This document shows, piece by piece, positions 1-63,800 of a stretch of DNA of 64,000 nt (position 1 is the stretch's first letter; every line of letters begins with the position of its first letter). The translations under genes were made by a program, and so were the position numbers. The DNA is from Eledone cirrhosa (taxonomy: Eukaryota). The DNA lies in contig OZ024750.1 of assembly GCA_964016885.1 (NCBI GenBank), positions 43,834,001-43,898,000 of the forward strand. The letters are read 5' to 3'. The notes under the pieces were generated by a model that saw only the letters and a program-made list of their open reading frames with translations, was not told where the DNA came from and searched no databases.

Positions 1-3000
1 ACTATGTAGGGGCATGTGCCAATAGAGGGGGTGTAAAAGCCTCAAAAGGTTAATCGGCCGATTTGACCTGGCCGATAGATATCGACTAGATTTTCCGACT
101 GTACCACTATGGACGTGGACCAATCGCAGCGGAACATCTAGGTCGTACCTAGATAGGGTCCTAGTTAGAGAGAAGGATAGGGACACATTTAGCTGTCCAA
201 AAATGTTCATGGTTGACTATTCGGATCACAAGTTAGTGACCTGCATAGCCAACCTTGATAGAACCCATAGACAGGGACCCGGTTACTGGAAGCTGAACTT
301 GTCCTTACCGAGAAGCAAAGCTTACAGTAAACGGATTAGCACGTTAGTTAAGCAGAGTTTGACAGGGGCAATTGTCAACAACAGGTGGTGGAGCTCTCTT
401 AAGAGAGCAATTAGAATAGAATCGATAGGTTTTAGTCAGGAATTAGCAAGGGATAGGAACAAGACGGAAAGGGAATTAGTAGATAGAGTAGAAGAGGCGA
501 TTAGGAGTGGCAATGTAGCCGGCGTGCTGGCATCAAGAATGGCCTTAGACCAGTTCTTTGAGGTGAAGCATGAAGGCTGCGTTGTCAGGAGTAAAATAAG
601 TGCTCTGGGTAATGAGGGAGCCAAAGCTGTGAGCTGGGCCCGATTGACAGAGGCAAAAAGTGGGAACAAGTCCACGATTCGGTCTTTGAAGGACTAGGAT
701 GCGCGTGTGATCCTTGAACCTGGGCAGATGTGTGCGGCCTTTCAGCGGCACTTTGCACGACTGTTCGAGAGGGGCGGCGCGCCGGGTGAGAATATGGATT
801 TCAATCCATACCTCGACGGTCTGCCGCGCTTCTCGGACGCGGAGGCGAAGTCCTGCGAAAGGACGATTTCAGCTGCTGAGATAGGGGCGGCGCTGAGCCA
901 ATGCGGCAAACGCAAATCCCCGGGTCTCGATGGTCTACCATACGAGCTATATGTAGCGATGCCGGACTTGTTCTCCGATATCCTCGAAGCGGTCTACTGC
1001 AACTGGCAGCAGAACGGGAGAATTCCCAGTTCTGTGACCAAGGGCGTAGTTACGCTGGTGAGGAAGGATGAGAACAAGGGGGATGACATAAGTAACTTCA
1101 GGCCCATAACTCTGCTAAATACAGAGTTAAAGATTTTGGCCAAGGTGTTAGCGAAGAGGTTGGCGCTTGTCGTTGGAAACCTGGTGGGAGAAGCGCAGAC
1201 ATGCGCAATCCCGTCCAGGTCCATTCACGACAATCTCCACTTTATGCGATACATCATAGAGAGGGTAGGGAATGAACCCGGCTTTGGTGGGGCCCTGATC
1301 AACTTGGATCAATCTAAGGCTTTCGATAGGGTTGACCATCGTTACCTGGATGCGGTGCTCGCGGCGGCAGGCTTCGGACCCGTTTTCAAGGGTTGGATTG
1401 CTGCGATGCACAGCAGCAACGTCTGCTCAAGGGTCAAGGTGAACGGCCACCTCTCGGAGCCGTTCCAAATCATGCGATCCATCCGACAGGGATGCCCTCT
1501 GTCCTTCCTACTGTATGTGCTGGCTCTTGAGCCACTACTGCGGAAGTTGGAGCGGTTGCAGGGCATCCCTTTGGAACCGGGATTGCAGAAAGCGGCGTCG
1601 GCCTACGCCGATGACGTGACAGTAATGGTGTCGAAAACCTCGCAAATCGGTGAGATCGGCACCTTACTGGAGGAATATGAAAGGTTTACAGGAGCCAAGC
1701 TGAACCGGGACAAGTCCGTCGGTTTGCAACTCGGAACATGGAGAGGCAAACCGATGCCCTCCAACGACGTCGTCGGACGCTGGACGGAGGGCCCGGTGAA
1801 GCTGCTTGGGGTCTGGTTCGGACCAGACCTCCAGGTGGAGAAAAACTGGAACGAGGTAACGGCCAGGGTGTTTGCACTCACCCAGAAGTGGGCCCAGTGC
1901 AAACTATCCCTGAAAGGTCGAGCGGAGGTGGCGAATACTAATATAGCATCCGTCATCTACTACCGCTTGACCATCGTGCCTTGCCCAGTGAAAAGACTCG
2001 CCAAAATGGAGTGCGCGCTGTTCCAATTTCTTTGGAACAAGCGGACCCCTTTGGGGAGGAGATCCATCTGCTGTCAACACCCTTCGAAAGGAGGGCTGGG
2101 GATGCCGTGGCTACAGATGCGTAAACACGCATTAAGGCTACGGCACCTCCAGGTATTCCTCACCGGTCAACCGGTGTGGGCCCCGTTTGTGAGGCGAGCC
2201 TTTCCCAGACTCGTCTCGCTCACCGAGCTGCAATCCTGGGTCAAGCAAAGACCGAGAAAAGTGGGCGACTTGCACATTGAATGTGCCCAGGCGCTCACGG
2301 CCCTCTGGAAAGCGAACCCGGCAATCAGTGGAGACTCCACCTCGACATTCTATAGAGGGTTGGTACGCAGCAGGTGCGACGATGCTCTCGGAGAAGCTCT
2401 AGGCATGGAGGAAGATGAACTGGCCAGTCTGTTCGGTAGGACGTTTGGCCCTGGACCGATGGACAACTTCCAAAAGTCCCTTGCTTGGCAGTGCTACCGA
2501 GGGGCTCTACCCGTTCGAGACAAGCTCCACAGGCATGGGAGCCTGGGTAGAGATCCTTTGAATAAGATCTGTCCGAGATGCCTGCATGATGACGAAACCG
2601 TTGCGCACGCATTCGTACACTGCCCAGGCATTGCTGACCTGTGGGGCTATGTGGAACGACTACTGTCGAGGGTGGGACCAATCCGGTTGACCACCGAGTC
2701 CATTGTCACGATCGAACCGCCTCCCCCTTTCAAAAACGAAGGAGAGGTGGCTTTTCTCTGTGTGATAGCCATGGCTAAAGAAGTTGTATGGTGGACGAGG
2801 CTGAAAGGGCTGAGATCAGACACCTTTCTCTCCGGCCAACAACTGGTCCCCTTTTTCAAATACCATTTTAAAAGAAGGATCAGAATGGAGAGAGAGGTGC
2901 TCTACCCCAGCAAGTTTTATGAAAGGTGGGTGAAAGTAGGGAGAATGGCCAGAGTGAATGGGTCTTCTCTCTATATCAGCCTGTAGGTGAAAGAAGAGGA

Positions 3001-9382: not shown

Positions 9383-9413
<31 letters not shown>

Positions 9414-9417
<4 letters not shown>

Positions 9418-9529
9418 CGAAGGAAATGTGGTAAGGAACCAGGTGGACCATAACGCACCAAAGTACTCAATACTTGGGGTAGTAGAGTGGGTAATAGGAA
9501 CCAGTAAGACCCCAGGGGTCTTACTGGTT

Positions 9530-9534
<5 letters not shown>
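9414..9534 (-). mobile_element. Fold-back mini-element (family T) in (TA)n
   Basis: Shared constant segment (GTGGTAAGGAACCAG..CCATAACGCACC..AGTACTCAATACTT) plus perfect 20-bp inverted repeat 9494-9513/9515-9534. Confidence 0.85.
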
Positions 9535-9573
<39 letters not shown>

Positions 9574-22937: not shown

Positions 22938-24897
22938 GGGTAGATTATAAAAAAGCATTCGATAGTTTGCCACACAGTTGGATTGAAAAATGTTTAGAGA
23001 TTTTCAAAATATCTCCCGTTGTCAGAGGTTCTTGTCATTCAGTATGAAGACATGGAAAACGACCAAAAATCACTGGAAGCTGGAGAAGGTAATATTAATT
23101 GTGGAATTTTTCAGGGTGACTCTTTATCACCGCTTTTATTCTGCATCGCACTTATACCATTAAGTAAAATGCTCAATGAAACAAAACATGGATATAAAGT
23201 CTATGACAAAATCATTAATCACTTGTTCTACATGGATGACCTGAAACTATTTGCAAAAAATGATGAACAATTGCAAGGGCTATTATCCACTGTGGAGCAG
23301 TTCAGTGATGACATTAAAATGGAGTTTGGACTAGATAAATGAGCCAAAGCAACGTTCACCAGAGGAAAGCTGCTGAAAAGTTCAGACATTAATCTTGATC
23401 GGGGGAATGTGATAAGAGAACTTGATCAAGAGGAAACTTACAAATGTGTTTGTGAAGGAGATGGAATCAAGCACTCGACAATGAGGGAAAGGATAAGGAA
23501 GGAATGTTACCGCAGAGTAAGAGCAATCTTAAGAACGGAATTGAATGCAAGGAGTAGGATCGATGCCATAAACACGCTTGCCATACCAGAAGTAACCTAC
23601 AGTTACAATGTCAGCAACTCGTCAAGCACAGAGATACGTAGGCTCGATACAAAAATTAGACAATGCTTAACCATGCACAGAATGCATCACCCTAAGGCAG
23701 ATACAGATAGAATATATCTCCCTACGAAAGAAGGAGGACGTGGGTTAATCCAGTTAGATATTGCGTTGAAAACTGCAACAATTGGATTATCTACATACCT
23801 AAGGCAATCACATGATTGGATGATCAAACTCGTTTTGAAACACGAAAGCATCAAAAGATCATACTCCATTACAAAAGATGCACAAAGATACAGTAATAGA
23901 CTACAAATTTCATTTACTGCTGAAATGGAAAACACAGAAAATCAAAGCAGGTAAAAGTAACTGCAAAGAAAGAACTGCTACAGAAACTGGCTAAGAAATG
24001 GCAAGAAAAGCCTCTGTATGGAAAATACCCAGAAAGAGCTAACAATCCTGATGTTGATAAAACATTAACCCATCAGTGGTTGGCATCCTCTGGACTGAAA
24101 TCGGAGACTGAAGGACTGATTATATCAGCACAAGATCAGTGTCTGCCAACAAAAAATTACCAAGCCAACATAATAAAAAATGGATGCAGCGCATTATGCC
24201 GTGTATGTAAAAAACAACCAGAGACCATTGATCATATAATTTCAATGTGCAGTCCTACAGCTCCAACCGAATACCTAAACAGGCATGACAGAGCTGCACA
24301 ATACATACATTGGATAATGTGTAAGCATTTTGACCTGCTCGATCAAAAGAATTGGTGGGAGCATCAACCACCTCCCATACTTGAAAAAGATCACATCTCA
24401 ATCTTGTGGAACTTTAGCATCCAAACAGACCGGAAAATAGATGCAAATAGACCTGATATAATACTGAAGGACTTTAAAAAGAGGGTATGCCTGCTAATTG
24501 ATATGTCTGTTCCAATAGACAAGAATGTATCCATAAAAACATTTGAAAAATTGAGCAAGTATAAGGACCTGGAGATAGAAATTGGAAAAATGTGGAAATT
24601 GAGAACTAAAACAATACCAGTGGTTGTAGGCGCTCTAGGCATGATACCTAAGGGGTCTAATGATTACTTATCGCAAAGTAATCGTATAGGAGAAATACAA
24701 AGATAGTACTAATGGGAACTGTCCATATACTAAGGAAGATTCTGTCAATATAAGTACATCACAAGTCTAAACACCTAAAGATGCATGTGTGTGTATGTAT
24801 GTTCTTTCTTGAACATGGCGGACCTTGTTGTCTTTTTAGGTCACTGGTTGTGACTTGGTGATAACTTGTATGAACATAAAGCAAGATAAATGCAACT
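22938..24897 (+). pseudogene. 5'-truncated R4/Dong-like non-LTR retrotransposon (RT + CCHC + restriction-like endonuclease), decayed
   Basis: DYKKAFDSLPH, GIFQGDSLSPLLF, YMDDLK, CRVC..ETIDHIISMC, RHD, NRPDII..LIDMSVP, EKLSKY; several stops and frameshifts; (TAA)n on both flanks. Confidence 0.88.
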
Positions 24898-46697: not shown

Positions 46698-46846
46698 TAC
46701 ATTCAAGGGCGGTGGCGCAGCATGGCCTCAGCCGGATGGCTGGAGCAGGTAATAGAGTATATATATGTATATATATATTCTTTTACTCTTTTACCTGTTG
46801 CATCCAACCGGCTGAGGCCATGCTGGGGCACAGCCCTTGAATGTAT
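46698..46846. repeat. Imperfect inverted repeat (tail-to-tail SINE-like ends)
   Basis: TACATTCAAGGGC..CAGCATGGCCTCAGCCGG ... CCGGCTGAGGCCATGCTG..GCCCTTGAATGTA. Confidence 0.8.
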
Positions 46847-47579: not shown

Positions 47580-50559
47580 TGAATAACTTTGAATAACTTT
47601 GAAATGTTTTGGCCAGTATTGGCCCAGGCCATGTCTAACTTAATAGCACCACCTGGCGAAGTCTTTCAATTCAGGATTTGGGCACCATGGCCCATTCGAG
47701 AAGAGAATTACTGTTTGCGGAGACATATCCGGGTGTGGGTGGTTTGTCCGGGATTACTTGGAGGAATTTGTCCAAAGACTTCTTGAATTTTGTGTGGTCA
47801 GTTTCTGTTTTGACGTGTCCTGGTGTGATGTTGAAGAGAGCAGGGCCGATTGAGGTGAAATAATTGTGCCGTATGGTTGTTATGAGTTGCGATTTAGATT
47901 TTTGAATGGGACGGATAGCACGGGGCCCAAGCCTTGGGTGTATCTTGAAGGCGATGCCAACATCATTTGGGCAGTGATGATGGAACATTTTCCACATCAT
48001 GCAGATAATATAACGCTCACGGCGACGTTGGAGTGAGTAAAGTTTCAGGTTTTCTAATCGACACCAGTAGTCAAGGTCTGACATGCCATCTATCTTTTTC
48101 GTGATTGCCCTTTGAGGAGCTTCAAGTTTCATGATACTTTGTTTCGTGTGGGGAGACCACAGTGGACAACAGTATTCAAGGTGTGGTCGGGCAAAAGTAG
48201 AGAAGAGAAGGATAATGGTGTGGGAATCTCTCTACTGGAAGGTTCTGAGGATCCAGGAACACATTCTGCGGGCCATGTCAACTTTGCTGCTTATATGCGT
48301 GGTCCAGCTTATGTTGCTGTCCACGGTTACTCCCAAGTCTCTGATGTTGTTAGATGCCACGAGAGTTTCCCCGGAGAGAAGGGAGTACGGGAGTTTCAGA
48401 GCATCCTCTTTTCCAAAGTGGATCAGTTCGAATTTGTCTTCGTTCAGTAACATGTTGTTCTTTTCCGCCCATTGGGTAACAGCCAGTAGGTCTGACTGAA
48501 GGCTTATCCGGTCATCCACGCCATTGATGACCTTTTGGAGCTTGGAATCATCGGCGAAAATTTTAATGTTGCTGTGTTTGATGATGTCAGTGATGTCATT
48601 AATATAGATGATGAAGAGAAGTGGGCCCAACACAGTGCCTTGTGGGACCCCACTACTGACTTTGGCTGGGCTGGATTTGACTCCTTCAACTACAACATGT
48701 TGGGTTCTGTTTGACAGGAAGCTCTTGATCCACTGCAGCAGCTTTCCAGTGACACCAATATTGGACAGCTTTCTCAGTAGAATGTTATGATCAACCCTGT
48801 CAAAGGCCTTGCTGAAATCAAGGTAGATAACATCAGTGTTGGAACCCTCTCCCAAGGCTCTCAAAATGTCATCAAAGTGATGCAGTAGCTGCGTCAGGCA
48901 ATCCCTTCCATTACGGAATCCATGCTGGTTGGAGTTCAGCATATTGTTACTCTCAAGGAAGTGGGTCATTCGCGATCTCACCACTCTCTCAAATACCTTA
49001 ATGATATGAGAGGTGATTGAGATTGGACGGTAATTCACGGCAAGGGATTTGTTTCCCTTTTTGAAAACTGGGACAACAGACTGGGATAGAAGGTTTTCTG
49101 GCACATATCCAGCATCCAGTGAGTTCCGCCACAGATTGGCAAGAGGAGATGCAAGTTGGTGTTGACACGCCTTCAAGACACAAGCAGGGAACCTATCGGG
49201 ACCTACTGCTGAATTATGCTTGATTTCCTTTATTGACGCTAAGACATCAGGGGCGCCAAACGTTATGTCCGATAAGGTGTAATGGGGAGTAACATCGCCG
49301 ATACAGCCCAGATCGGCCATATCAGGATTGCTGAAAACAGAGCAGTATTGTTTCTGCAGTATCTCACCCATTGTTTTAGCATTGTCTTGAAGAGTGCCAT
49401 TTTCATCAATTAGAGGGCCAACAGTAGAGCCAGTGATTTTGTGTTTTTTTGCAAATGAAAAGAACACTTTGGGATTGAGTTTGATCTTCTCAATGGCCCA
49501 GGCCTCTTCAGCTCTTCTCTGATTGTTGATGAGAGACATTATGTTGTTTTGGAGGTTATGTTTTTTAATCTCTAGTGATGAAATGGCAGTCAAGTTGATG
49601 TGTTGCTGCTGACAGTATTTCAGCTTGTTGATTTTTTTGTTCGTTCTCTTAATTTTTCTGATGAGCGTTTTTCTATTTCTAGGGATTCTGCTCTTAGATT
49701 TGTTTATAGTTCTTAATGGGGTGTGTTTTGCACATATGTTTGTAACAGTGTCCACAAATGTCTGCCAGGACTTTTTGATGTTAGTGGGTGTATGAGTGTG
49801 CGTGAAGGACCAGTCGACATGTGCAAGATCATGACTGATCGCTTCCCAGTTTGCATTGTGGAAATCCATAGCGTCAAACGGATGGACAGGAGAGATGACA
49901 TTGGGTTTGTATATTGGACGGTGGAATCTCAGATCACAGAGAACCATGTCATGATCAGAGAGTAGAGTTTTCTCCACTGCAATATTGTGGATATTGTCAG
50001 TGTGATTGCTGAAAATTAAGTCTAGGACGTTTTTGTAGCACCTCGTTGGTTCGAGCACCAGTTGGGATAGGAAGAAATCATCCATGAAGTCAAGAAGCGA
50101 TTCCACTGCTTCCCTGTCAGAGGTTGCGGCAGAAGAACCTGGTGGCAGGCTGTTTGTGGACCAGTCAACTCCGGGGAGGTTGAAGTCCCCCATCATTAAG
50201 ATGTTGTCAGGGTGACACTCTTGGATGAAACACTTTATGCTGTTGAGGCATTCCTTGAAGCATGGTACAGGCGTTTGGGGTGGCCTATAGAGCCCAACTA
50301 CTATTAGTTATTGGTTTGACTGAATACAGTGACTGCTTCACAGTATCCATTAGTGAATATGTTCATAGCCTCTGTTGAGAAAGAATTATGGACATAAATG
50401 GCAGTTCCACCCTTTCTTCTGCCAGCGCGATCAGCACGGATGGCTTTGAAATTTTTCACTTTCACCTCGGCTTCCACGTGGAGGTTACTGAGATGGGGTT
50501 CAGTGAGGACGAAGAAAGGGATGTGGTTTGGATGGACATCAATCCAGTCCTCCAGGAAT

Positions 50560-52279: not shown

Positions 52280-52282
<3 letters not shown>

Positions 52283-52471
52283 ACGAAGGAATTGTGGTAA
52301 GGAACCAGATGGACCATAACGCACCAGAGTACTCAGCACTTATGGTAGTAGATTTTTGAAATAGGAAAAAGTATGACCTCGACGGCAGAGCTCAAGCAGC
52401 TTCGACGGCTATTTCTGGACAGAAATAGCCGTCGAAACGGCTTGAGCTCTGCCGTCGGTGTCATACTTTTT

Positions 52472-52476
<5 letters not shown>
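52280..52476 (-). mobile_element. Fold-back mini-element (family T), 56-bp arms
   Basis: Arms 52361-52416 and 52421-52476, GGAC loop; flanked by (TA)n. Confidence 0.88.
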
Positions 52477-52528
<52 letters not shown>

Positions 52529-53087
52529 CTGTGTCAGCTTCAATCGGGGGTAACCACAGTAAGTAAAGTACTCAATACATAGTAGAATATATATAATATT
52601 TATTATAGAAGTGGCTTCTACAGGACTAGAACTGTGAAAGACGAGGTTAATATAAGTATATTGAGAAACATGTGAGGAATCAAATCCCTCATCCCTCGAG
52701 GAACCCAACTACATCCATAACTGTGATTCCCTTTTACATGTTTTCTTTTGTCATGTACAAGAAAGACACACATGCTAACAAAACAAAACAAAACTGACGA
52801 ACGTTTGTCGTTTTTGTCATTAATTCTTCATTTAGATAGTTAATGTTAATTATAAAACTACTTTGAATACCCGTATCTTTCTTCTGTCCTTCCCTACCCC
52901 ACTCTTTTCCCCAGTCTCTATCTGTCTCTCTTTTCAACTCATAAGCTCCTCTGTGAACAAATTCATAAGATCATCTTTATGTGTCAAGTAATGTAATCGA
53001 AGATAGTCAATTTCCAGGATCTATACTCACCCAAACACACACACAATACAAATCAATATCTCCACATAGTACCGACAATAAAATAGT

Positions 53088-60193: not shown

Positions 60194-60545
60194 CATATAT
60201 ATGTATATATATATATATATATATACATATATATGTATATATATATATATATATATACATATATATGAATATGTATATAAATATATAAACATGTATATAA
60301 ATTTATACATATGTATATAAATATGTATATAAAGTTTCTGAATTTGTTTAGCAAGATTCTTTATCTGAAATCGTGTGTTGAAACCGATATTGTTATACTT
60401 TGGGAGGGTCATGTTGCCAATAAGAAACACACGCACCAGTTGCTTTCACTTCAATTTAATTTAATATATATTTATAAATTTACAAATTTATAAATTTCTG
60501 GTTGGTTGGTTGGTTCCACAACCAGATAGTTGTTTATATATATAT

Positions 60546-60590
60546 AGTCATAGTTCTTTCGTCACACACTCTGTGACCTCTTCAGTGACT
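60546..60590 (-). ncRNA. Type I hammerhead ribozyme in the pLTR (family C)
   Basis: AGUCA-CUGAAGA-G-GUCACA-GAGUG-UGUGAC-GAAA-GAA-CUA|UGACU. Confidence 0.85.
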
Positions 60591-60884
60591 GGGGATTTCT
60601 TTCTTCGTTTCTGTGCCTTTCCTTTCTTCTATCCTACGCCATTTTGTTTGTGTGTGGGTTGCGTGCTCAGTTTGCGCATGCGCCACATCCGGGTGTCTGT
60701 GTGTGTTTGTGTTCATTTTTCTATTTTTCTATTTATATTTGTTTGTTTATTTATTTATTTATTGTTGGTTGGTTGTTTGTTCTATGTGTGTGTGTGTTTT
60801 CATTTTGTCTTGTGTGTGTTTTCATTTTGTGTGTGTTTTCAATTGTAAGTTGTTTATATATGTGTGTGTGTTTTCATTTTGTCC

Positions 60885-63800
60885 TTAATTGTAAGTTGTG
60901 ATGTTGCTGTTCCACTCATATTTTCTATTTAATTTTGGTTTTAATTCTTTTATGCTTACTGCCTCTGTAATTTGCCTAAACATTGCGTCTTTCTTGTGTG
61001 TGGATTCTATTTTTATTTCTATGCTCTCTAATTTACCCCTGTGTTCTATCTTAGCATGTTGGTAGAGCACAGATGATTCTTTAGTATCTTGGAGGTCTCG
61101 CCAGTGTTCATTTATTCGTTCCCCTATACTACGAGCTGTCTCACCTATGTACACTATATTTTTGTTTCTACATTGTCCCTCAGTACATCTTATGCTATAT
61201 ACTACATTTCTAGTTTTACAGTTAATATGGGGGCTTATTTTACAGGTTATACATTTCTTATCTATACATGAGGGTCTTTGGAACGGGTATGTCTTGCTAA
61301 TAAGTGTTTTTACGGAGGTACCAGGTCTTTCTACTATCTTAATATTGAGATTATGTTTCTTTAGGGCCCTTCTAAATTTGTAGGCTAGTTCACCTCTAGG
61401 GGTTGTATTGATGAACATTACACTCTGGTATTTATTGCTATCATACCATGAGTTTATTCTATTGGCCTTGTTCTTAGTTCTTTCTATTCTATTCCAAAAT
61501 TTGCTCCTATACAAGGGGCAGGTCCCATTTATGTCATTATTTACCATTTTTTCCCATTTGGTTCTGGCTCCTTTATACACTCTGATTCTATCTCTCTGAT
61601 TGTAGCCAGAGAACTGCATACGGTGGATGAAGTGTTGTATGTGTCTCTCTAGTTCTTCGGGGTTGCACATGCGGGACACATTTCTCATCACCCGTATCAA
61701 ATCCGCAATCAGTATGTTGATTTTGGTATGGTCCGAAATGGCCGAGTTTCGGTGGATCAGATGTTTGGAAGTCATGGGTTTGGCATAATGGGAATGGAGG
61801 ATTTGTTTTTGGTTGTTAATAGTATCTAACCAGAGCTCTGTGTCTAGTACAGGTAATCGATGGTTGGGGTGTCTACTTGGGTAGTCTATAGTAACTCTAA
61901 TGCTCTGGTGGATGGAGTTTGCTATTTGCTGGATGCTTTCCATTGTGTTTTTCTCAGGTTCCTGACTGTTCTTTAGTGGGGGTGTCTTAACTACGATGTT
62001 TATATCATCTACGTAGCGGGAGTACATTATCAGGGTTAATCTGTCTTCTAATTGTTCTTTAAGTTTTTGTTTAAGTCTACTGTCCCACCATACCATGAAC
62101 AAGTTAGCTATGTCGCCTGCAATGCTAACACCAATGGCTGCTCCTTCCTCTTGGGCATATGTTTTACCATTAAATTTGAACATATGTTCCTTAAGGGTTA
62201 ATTTTATGCTGGCCCCTACCGCATGTGCAATCATTTTCTTCAGTTCATCGTGGTTTTCGGGTGTCCGTATGGCTCTGGTCCACCCGTTCCATCTATCTGT
62301 GTGGGTTTTCTTGGCCATTGAGGTAATGGTAGGTGGTCTGCCTCTTGCTGGTCTTGTAGGGCACAGGTTGCTAAGGTCATAAGTGTCTAGGTAACTATTA
62401 CTATGGGTAAGCTTAAGTAGAAGTCCCAGCTCACTGGTATCAATCCCACGGAACTCAACCTTGCTCTCGCTGATCATTTCGACGCATTTCTCCACAGCAA
62501 AATCCACGTCAATAGATGGATACAGGGACACAACATCCATACTGCCTATTATGCAGTTTGTTAGGTCCCCAGATCGGTTACCCGCGTCGATTCTGCTGAG
62601 GAGGTCCTCCGTGCTGTCACACACATCTGGGGACATCTCAATGATGGGGCGTATGATCAGGGAGAGGAAGTAGGACAGTCTGTAGTTACTAGCAATGTTA
62701 GCCCCACAGACTGGCCGTGTTGGTGGTCCCGCGACAGGGTCCCAGCCCGTTTTATGGTCCTTTCGAAGCCCATACAACGCCGGCACGTCATTGTTCCAGG
62801 CCTGGAAGTTGTTGGCAGTCCTTTTGTTGGGCTGCATTATATTTGTCCACATCACCATATGGGCATTGAGGGTTTTTTCTCTGTCCTCATGCTCCTGTGG
62901 TGTTACCTCTCTTGTGTTAGTGATGTGGGGTTGCATTGCCTGGATGTAGTTTGGCAGGCTGTCAACCGACATTCTGCCAGACTTGTCTGTTGGAAAGCAT
63001 GCTATCTCTCCATTACGCGAGCGCTGCATGAGCTTACGCAAGCCATTTGCAGATTCTTCTCCCAGTTGCTGGGCCTCTATTCTATTATGCTTCTTGCTAT
63101 ACTGTTCTATAATATTTCTAAGTTCGGATTTAGCTATACTAAATTGTGCTTCTGTTTGTTCATCGACCTGCGACGGCAACTGCGTGCGTTTGTTAAATGG
63201 CAAAGTCGTGGCGTGGACTCGTCGTAGGTCGAATGATTTATCGGAGGGATTATAAAACGGAGAGTTCCAGGCTGCTGCTTTATGTGTACTTGCGCTATTG
63301 TTAGTTGTGTTGTTTCTATTTCCACCAACAGCAGCAGCCTCAGCTTCATGGTTGTTTCTATGTCTCTCATAATTACTCCTGTCTCTTTCCACTGGCTCAA
63401 TGTTGTTATCTACCCTATTTTGTGTGTCTGTGTGTTCGTCTTGGTTATTCTCTTTGTCCTTAGTCTCCCTACTCCTTTTAATCCTATTACTTTCTCTTAT
63501 TTCTCTGATTTCTGTGCTACTGTCATTACTTGTTTTCTGTGTCTGTGTGTTTGTTAAGATTGTAGTGGTGGTGAGAGGCATTGAATGTGTGTGTGTTGTT
63601 GTTGTTGATGTGTGTTGTTGTTGATGTGTGTTGTTGTCTCCGTGTGTGTGTGTGTTATCGTTGTTGTGTGTGTTGTTATTGTTGTTTGTGTTTGCGTGTC
63701 TGTTGTTGTTGTATCTGGGTATGTTGCTGTTGTTGTTGTTGTTGATGTGTGTGTTGTTGTTATTGTTGTCTCCGTGTGTGTTGTTATTGTTGTTTGTGTC

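Follow-up and report, generated by a model that had tools for sequence, protein, structure and literature searches.

The insertion at 9.5 kb of the window (the whole stretch of DNA analyzed, 64,000 nucleotides) spans 9416 to 9534, 119 bp in total, and lies between two (TA)n tracts. Table 1 lists its parts together with the related loci. The right part of the insertion is a perfect 20-bp inverted repeat with a central A (9494-9534), which cannot be extended. A scan of the window for inverted repeats (arms of at least 20, spacer of 0 to 3, at least 5 G+C per arm) gave, as the sole other hits, two overlapping matches at one microsatellite edge (32833-32834). The palindrome had been pointed out in an earlier note, which is borne out here, and so is its observation that CCGTC directly precedes the homologous G-run in sister copies (34629-34633 and 43817-43821; the positions in the note are off by 1 to 3). 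The note had regarded the 41 bp at 9494-9534 as the insertion. The real insertion includes a 78-bp unique tail to the left of the palindrome. It consists of a main copy with a tail of approximately 80 nt and an inverted copy without the tail, and both arms, not just one, end at the GTC/GGGG base (the slash marks the predicted cleavage position).

Table 1. Features of the 9.5-kb insertion, its sister loci and the other Penelope-like element (PLE) in the window
Feature	Position	Strand	Remarks
(TA)n target tract, left flank	9387..9415	.	
Main-copy tail, unit +61 to +139	9416..9493	-	ends TA at the terminal reverse-transcription start
GAGTACT motif in tail	9462..9468	-	kept in 6/6 copies
Main-copy arm, unit +41 to +60	9494..9513	-	ends at the GTC/GGGG base
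Central base of palindrome	9514..9514	.	non-templated A or CpG-decayed C of +40
Inverted copy, unit +41 to +60, tail-less	9515..9534	+	stops at the internal start, TTCCTAT
(TA)n target tract, right flank	9535..9567	.	
Short copy of the other PLE	33575-34185		hammerhead at 33765; same two-part anatomy
Sister copy, 34 kb	34437..34653	-	main arm to +6; inverted arm rearranged, runs through the site
Sister locus, 42.7 kb, main copy	42699..42755	-	ends in the tail, near +83
Final 21 tail nt, then 90 nt with GAGCACT	42757..42867	+	putative 5' UTR of parent PLE
First 42 codons of Hydra-clade PLE-like ORF (KNIP..., KRLRWR)	42868..42993	+	18/42 identical to Hydra-1_Obim by eye
Five bases between ORF piece and family arm	42994-42998		belong to neither
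Family arm, unit +41 to +59	42999..43017	+	joined behind ORF piece; second junction at the GTC/GGGG base
Sister copy, other subfamily	43727..43921	+	both arms to +1; 4 bases at the turn
Sister copy, 46 kb	46147..46293	-	turn at +1 to +4; inverted piece merely ~10 nt
Sister copy, complete 139-nt unit	52282..52420	-	common 5' end (+1, GTC) to terminal start; read-test reference
Half hammerhead in inverted arm of 52-kb copy	52433..52456	+	CGAA, 5-bp stem III, GAGCTC-palindrome loop, GTC; without the CUGANGA half
Other PLE, 5'-truncated	60335-63400	-	833-codon open frame, RT + GIY-YIG; CX4CxxC linker as in Neptune/Nematis types

Six loci of the family, a short repeat of high copy number, are found in the window (9.5, 34.4, 42.7, 43.7, 46.1 and 52.3 kb), and a TA tract stands at the start of all six. 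The longest copy, at 52 kb on the minus strand, is 139 nt when read in the GAAAC..GTC orientation; its first G was numbered +1, which places the hammerhead-type site at +40/+41. Two 3' ends are fixed in the family, +60 (TTCCTAT) and +139, and the usual locus has a main piece running from +139 toward the 5' end plus an inverted piece from +60. Seven of the 12 arms in the window have their 5' end at +1 to +6 and three at +41 (the two arms of the 9.5-kb insertion and, at 42.7 kb, the inverted one); one further arm ends near +83 in the tail and one is rearranged and runs through the site. The 52-kb copy forms a palindrome with 58-bp arms (52361-52476). In the centre of the 34-kb copy (34570-34630) one piece of the arm is duplicated and the strand switches at ACGGC, a sign of repeated template switching. 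An 8- to 13-nt part of the arm (52366-52378 and homologous places) varies widely from locus to locus and is closely alike in the two arms of any given locus, suggesting many source elements.

Identification of the family as a MITE was rejected, since a MITE has terminal inverted repeats and a fixed structure, and here the repeat does not include the tail and copies differ in their turn. Non-LTR retrozymes (bioRxiv 10.64898/2026.07.22.740005; PMC7761336) are likewise short, non-coding, PLE-related and hammerhead-related. Retrozymes are tandem units with a full hammerhead each, whereas the family consists of single inverted insertions with a half hammerhead, and this identity was also rejected. 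The ATG frame in the tail (MVHLVPY..., 6/6 copies) was considered as an ORF start and discarded after no match was found among 120 proteins compared. The core pattern of the family had 0 matches in metagenome, viral and prokaryote contigs. In the openly accessible literature, searched mostly at the level of listings, we found no description of the family or of genomic copies ending at a PLE hammerhead site; Repbase or Dfam may list the family.

The tailed main copy with an inverted tail-less copy is an anatomy described for PLEs (PMC8557442, PMC3846280), and the 5'-truncated, tail-less inverted partner is that of EN+ PLEs. Poseidon PAc (PMC11167929) and the A. vaga Penelope (PMC3846280) are alike in having two fixed starts downstream of the hammerhead, a tail on one arm and an inverted partner; in the Anolis PLE two internal reverse-transcription starts define the tail (PMC11167929). 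The tail of the family differs from theirs in length (79 nt, not 30-40) and probably in nature, a 5' UTR rather than an ORF. Close likeness is also seen to Hydra-clade PLEs. For these, PMC8557442 gives (TA)n as the target, an RWK motif, and canonical hammerheads whose form is GAA-AC..GT-H and whose stem III is real. The family shares with them the (TA)n insertion, found at 6/6 loci, the GAA-AC..GT-H half with a real stem III ahead of the TA-rich end, the GAG(C/T)ACT near the ends (GAGCACT published, GAGTACT in the tails here) and the inverted 5'-truncated partner, recorded for Penelope-13_HM. The 584,000-character supplement of PMC8557442 contains the pattern T[TA]GAG[CT]ACT 5 times, and 3 of these stand near the ends of the 6 Hydra consensus sequences. 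In contrast to Hydra-clade PLEs, the family unit has 139 nt, is non-coding, lacks the CUGANGA half and has one dominant 5' end inside the ribozyme region; in place of a canonical hammerhead near the 3' end, the window copies carry a half only. Six short family motifs are absent from the supplement of PMC8557442, and the family is therefore not among the families given there.

The 42.7-kb locus is the only one of the six that holds parent coding sequence, and 42 codons are all of the PLE ORF that is linked to the family. The ORF start with KNIP and RW(K/R) resembles that of Hydra-1_Obim (PMC8557442); by-eye comparison places RWR at codons 38-40, as the N-terminal RWK of the Hydra clade. This identification rests on the supplement of PMC8557442, compared by eye. 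For the 50-residue peptide, searches of two protein collections, of the Atlas and of Pfam and two contig scans gave no relative, and its motifs occurred in 0 of 267 proteins compared. The regions that would carry the DKT motif, the CxCX5C linker and the CCHH-less nuclease of the Hydra clade are absent from the window, in which PLE protein queries matched only the loci of another PLE. Tail and linker together place 169 nt ahead of the ATG, as compared with 173 in Hydra-1_Obim (the latter counted by eye). From the 42.7-kb locus and the Hydra-clade comparison we infer that the main-copy tail at 9.5 kb is the beginning of the parent's 5' UTR, and that a head-to-tail junction of a Hydra-clade PLE lies within the 139-nt unit, the order being half hammerhead, 20-nt arm and the start of the next 5' UTR. 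The 21-nt tail piece at 42.7 kb reads as an exact reverse complement of the first bases of the main piece and could be a separate copy of the tail end. If so, the contiguity argument would be weaker; the presence of Hydra-type sequence in the insertion would be unaffected.

The earlier note did not use the 42.7-kb locus, and its junction therefore counts as an independent case, although a single one. The final 19 nt, ending in TA, match the family arms at 14-16 of 19 positions and the preceding 19 nt at 6-8 of 19. The five bases abutting the site agree with three arms at 0/5 and with a fourth at 1/5, and the 20-mer at the junction is found within 5 mismatches in the window in family arms only. 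At 5 nt upstream of the site there is an in-register 6/8 match. Likeness of the 40-nt head to the ORF gave p = 0.026, 0.069, 0.27 and 0.83 in four comparisons. The head was not accepted as decayed ORF codons on these values; because of them and the upstream match, the junction is not beyond doubt. The order, ORF codon 42 followed by +41 to +59, fits a cDNA begun at +60 that ran up to an end at +41 and from there jumped to the ORF.

The motif ahead of the site at 52433-52456, CGAA-ACGGC-loop-GCCGT-C, has the GAAA, stem III and NUH triplet of a type I hammerhead. The same half motif is present at 34.5 kb (one arm) and at 43.75 kb, and it is conserved together with its palindromic loop across two diverged subfamilies. 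It has the form of Hydra-clade PLE hammerheads and lies at their position. An exact CUGANGA core was found in none of the six copies on either strand, and the window copies therefore cannot self-cut. Six one-mismatch look-alikes in four copies gave no match to the hammerhead descriptor. The same descriptor did recover two complete motifs elsewhere in the window, both belonging to another PLE. Stems I and II are not closed by sequence further upstream in the RNA, as the unit starts 16 nt before CGAA. In the copies at 52 kb and 46 kb, what resembles stem II is formed by the turn of the inverted duplication. Rfam models gave no match in the window at gathering score, yet the complete motif at 60585 was likewise missed; scans by E-value gave hairpin and microsatellite noise only. 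No parent with an intact hammerhead was found in protein searches, contig scans and the supplement of the Hydra-clade paper. The GUC cleavage site predicted in the earlier note has only the 3' half of a hammerhead behind it.

The other PLE in the window served as an internal control. Its RT/GIY-YIG frame lies at 60.9-63.4 kb (both Pfam scores are below the cut-off), and the best match of the protein is an Octopus vulgaris protein with 66% identity. It has a complete minimal hammerhead in the pLTR, and its tail encodes the ORF start. This PLE was rejected as the parent of the family: it shows no DNA likeness to the family and its ORF start is of another type. In its short copy at 33575-34185 the internal start is used for the main piece and the terminal start for the inverted one, opposite to what is usual in the family studied. 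A small TA-flanked piece at 42388-42425 resembles the 3' hammerhead half of this PLE and ends a few bases past its cut site.

The earlier note had proposed that a sharp peak of truncations at GTC/GGGG would support its idea, and we looked for such a peak in public data. Two contig sets (X1, 13,531 records aligned; X4, 298) and two RAD-seq read sets (X20, 19,842; X21, 20,498), four of 22 runs and all under one organism label, were aligned to 52282-52476 at 80% likeness. X4 was not taken as evidence of expression. A peak was found, 40 nt upstream of the proposed one: the sharp loose end stands before 52420 (+1), with 141 contigs in X1, 12 in X4, 1225 reads in X20 and 1240 in X21. The letters at this end are GTC before it and mixed beyond it, and depth rises 5.6- to 5.7-fold between 52415-21 and 52436-42. 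Across the mirrored site 52380/52381, depth drops by just 0.9% and 1.4% in the two read sets. No joint at the GTC/GGGG site was found among the 15 of 79 joints listed and no loose end there among the 24 of 491 listed. The loose ends behind 52352 (3440 in X20, 3456 in X21) read in plurality CCCCGAC in both sets, which continues through the site. At the left end, TA is what the loose ends read in three runs out of four. The RAD reads over-count a few loci, X1 may be the source sample, and the likeness of the reference itself ends at 52420 and diverges at 52353-52360. Ends at +41 are under-seen in this test, because a 20-nt arm is at the limit of alignment. It was concluded that +41 is ruled out as the main 5' end, and a minor peak at +41 is compatible with the data.

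One contig joint in X1 (1 of 12 listed, of 86) runs from 52378 to 52420 with the letters CCGTC, so that the main piece ends at the site within one base. If one RNA made both arms, its template was uncut, since the inverted arm still reaches +1. Other contig joints end approximately 4 nt short of the site and carry additional A's. Main pieces end at 52305, 52324, 52329, 52330, 52332, 52335, 52352 and 52378, joined to an inverted piece starting at 52419-52425. The inverted piece is therefore not a fold-back copy of the main piece. Fold-back of a single cDNA was rejected as a general mechanism, as inverted arms stand beside main pieces that never reach the arm.

The dominant +1 end has the context (T/C)AGT(C/T) (52418-52425), and the plurality letters upstream are AATTTA at approximately 0.5 agreement. 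By eye, YAGTY resembles the Drosophila initiator, with CGAAA at +18 and a 5/6 match to the DPE set at +28 (Drosophila consensus, PMC4581360; this numbering counts the A before GTC as +1). Such a context with downstream elements would suit an internal promoter, as in Penelope. Candidate explanations for the +1 end are initiation of transcription, a splice acceptor, or cutting by a different ribozyme upstream. HDV-like and twister folds were tried at +1 by eye and did not fit. One contig reads ATTCA/GTC, which breaks the NUH rule for an upstream minimal hammerhead cutting at TTTA/GTC.

The central base at 9514 bears on how exactly the 9.5-kb arms stop at the site. On the main-copy strand it is a T, which may be the CpG-decayed C of GTC (+40). 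In the seven CpG columns of the family, TG or CA stands in 9 letter pairs as compared with CG in 35; the 9 include base 9514 itself and one misaligned row. This base does not discriminate between readings: run-off would account for a non-templated A, and a decayed C would go with stalling or deletion. The earlier note had the copy stopping precisely at the scissile bond with one extra base at the turn. Both arms do end at the homologous base, but since the T may be a decayed C, "precisely" is good only to within one base, and the base, which is present, is perhaps not additional.

The following mechanism would account for these structures. The PLE enzyme would nick both strands of a (TA)n tract and prime twice on the RNA, once at +139 and once at +60, in a manner resembling twin or dual priming. 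The 3' ends of the two cDNAs would then be joined, often via short shared letters. The 139-nt unit would cover the head-to-tail junction, with the unit end carrying the hammerhead followed by the 5' UTR of the next unit. We consider this much, two cDNAs primed at (TA)n and joined, from a unit across that junction, to be likely. Most copies would derive from a shortened master, beginning at +1, that has no CUGANGA half and is unable to self-cut. A minority would come from parent RNA cut at +40/+41, on which both cDNAs would run off at +41, leaving one non-templated base at the turn; a template RNA cut there is our proposed reason why both 9.5-kb arms end at one base. Taken as a whole chain, in which hammerhead-cut RNA from an unseen parent was the run-off template for a minority of copies, the 9.5-kb palindrome included, the explanation is our preferred one and is put forward as possible, short of probable. 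L1 twin or dual priming (PMC2837659) is similar in that two opposite cDNAs are joined at their 3' ends; the family lacks poly(A), has a fixed second priming site and targets (TA)n.

The same two-cDNA insertion could also be made on uncut RNA if the reverse transcriptase stalled after the G-run, at the base of a hairpin ending at +39. We regard this as possible, a close rival that is only a little less likely than the preferred reading. It requires no unseen ribozyme half, and the hairpin ACGGC..GCCGT closes beside the site (-7.2 kcal/mol; an alternative hairpin, -6.9). Stalling predicts an end at +40, which suits the central base if that is a decayed C, and the contig joints agree with it, one ending at the site with its other arm reaching +1 and the others falling short with additional A's. 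The hairpin is weak, however, and 8 of the 11 window arms that reach the base go through it. Two separate stops within one base are required at 9.5 kb, and stalling leaves unexplained why a +41 junction and a forward jump into the ORF occur at the sole locus with coding sequence. Loss of the centre from a longer palindrome, like that of the 52-kb copy with its 58-bp arms, is improbable. Long palindromes can lose their centre, and CCCC-G and C-GGGG share CG, at which slippage or hairpin processing could produce CCCC(G)GGGG by symmetric deletion, followed by CpG decay to A. The arms at 9.5 kb are nonetheless perfect, with no sign of repair, and neither the 42.7-kb junction nor the contig joint, which are not palindromic, would be explained.

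Finally, the site could mark nothing more than a boundary between modules, or a stop by chance. The 19-nt arm would then be native to the parent ORF, the 40-nt head would be decayed coding or promoter sequence, and GAAAC..GTC would be no relic of a hammerhead. The frame 42868-43017 is open through the arm without a stop, and the initiator-like +1 context with its downstream elements would agree with a promoter. Published Hydra proteins have aromatic residues after RW(K/R), where the frame here has RR; moreover, the likeness of head and ORF is not clearly significant, and the half motif is kept with its palindromic loop in two diverged subfamilies. We consider this reading likewise improbable.

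The fossil of run-off on cut RNA proposed in the earlier note is partly supported; it gains from the Hydra-type half motif and from the 42.7-kb junction and one contig joint at the same base; it is weakened by the missing core in 6/6 copies and by the main end at +1. The further claim of in vivo evidence for ribozyme activity is not reached, because the core is absent from all six copies, the sharp end lies 40 nt upstream and a hairpin could explain the stops without cleavage. The link of the insertion to hammerhead cleavage is real but unproven, and it offers a lead on an open question. The in vivo role of PLE hammerheads is stated as unknown in PMC8557442 and PMC7761336. In the sole biochemical study, on the Anolis PLE, the hammerhead was dispensable in vitro, and, according to PMC11167929, RNA-seq ends at its site were not found; some family copies, in contrast to PAc, end at the predicted cut site. 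Genomic 5' junctions have been used as a record of RNA cutting in R2 (HDV-like ribozyme, PMC3774820), where they follow the cut sites and carry non-templated bases, and in Perere-3 (twister ribozyme, PMC8501958), which is alike in both respects. There the ribozyme lies downstream of the cut, is retained in the copy and has been assayed, whereas the core of the family would sit upstream and escaped our searches, and only a minority of ends lie at the site.

Genomic copies record each cDNA stop, and counting ends at the cut site would test cut RNA as a template. The family further illustrates how two fixed starts give rise to the inverted repeats and tails of PLEs. A wider and, on balance, unlikely proposal is that an octopus-type genome holds a fossil record of PLE hammerhead cleavage. 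A Hydra-clade parent would cut its tandem transcript at +40/+41, and its own enzyme would copy the cut end from two fixed starts and could jump back into the ORF; a derivative without the catalytic half would have escaped cutting and spread to approximately one copy per 10 kb. If this is true, the two 5'-end peaks, +41 and +1, read out cut and uncut templates genome-wide. If stalling is the right reading, the insertion is an ordinary PLE fragment.

The window contains no tRNA genes. Other TA-flanked fragments with GTATTGAGTAC or TAGAGCACT words are found at 52545-52600 (minus strand), at 33360-33515 (minus strand) with 34238-34310, and at 44510-44540, and are possibly tails of further Hydra-clade families. 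Two inverted duplications of unrelated sequence lie at 46706-46836 and 44050-44290. Three RT frames of non-LTR retrotransposons are present at 698-2986 (plus), 22998-24706 (plus) and 48232-50307 (minus), one of them with an AP-type nuclease.
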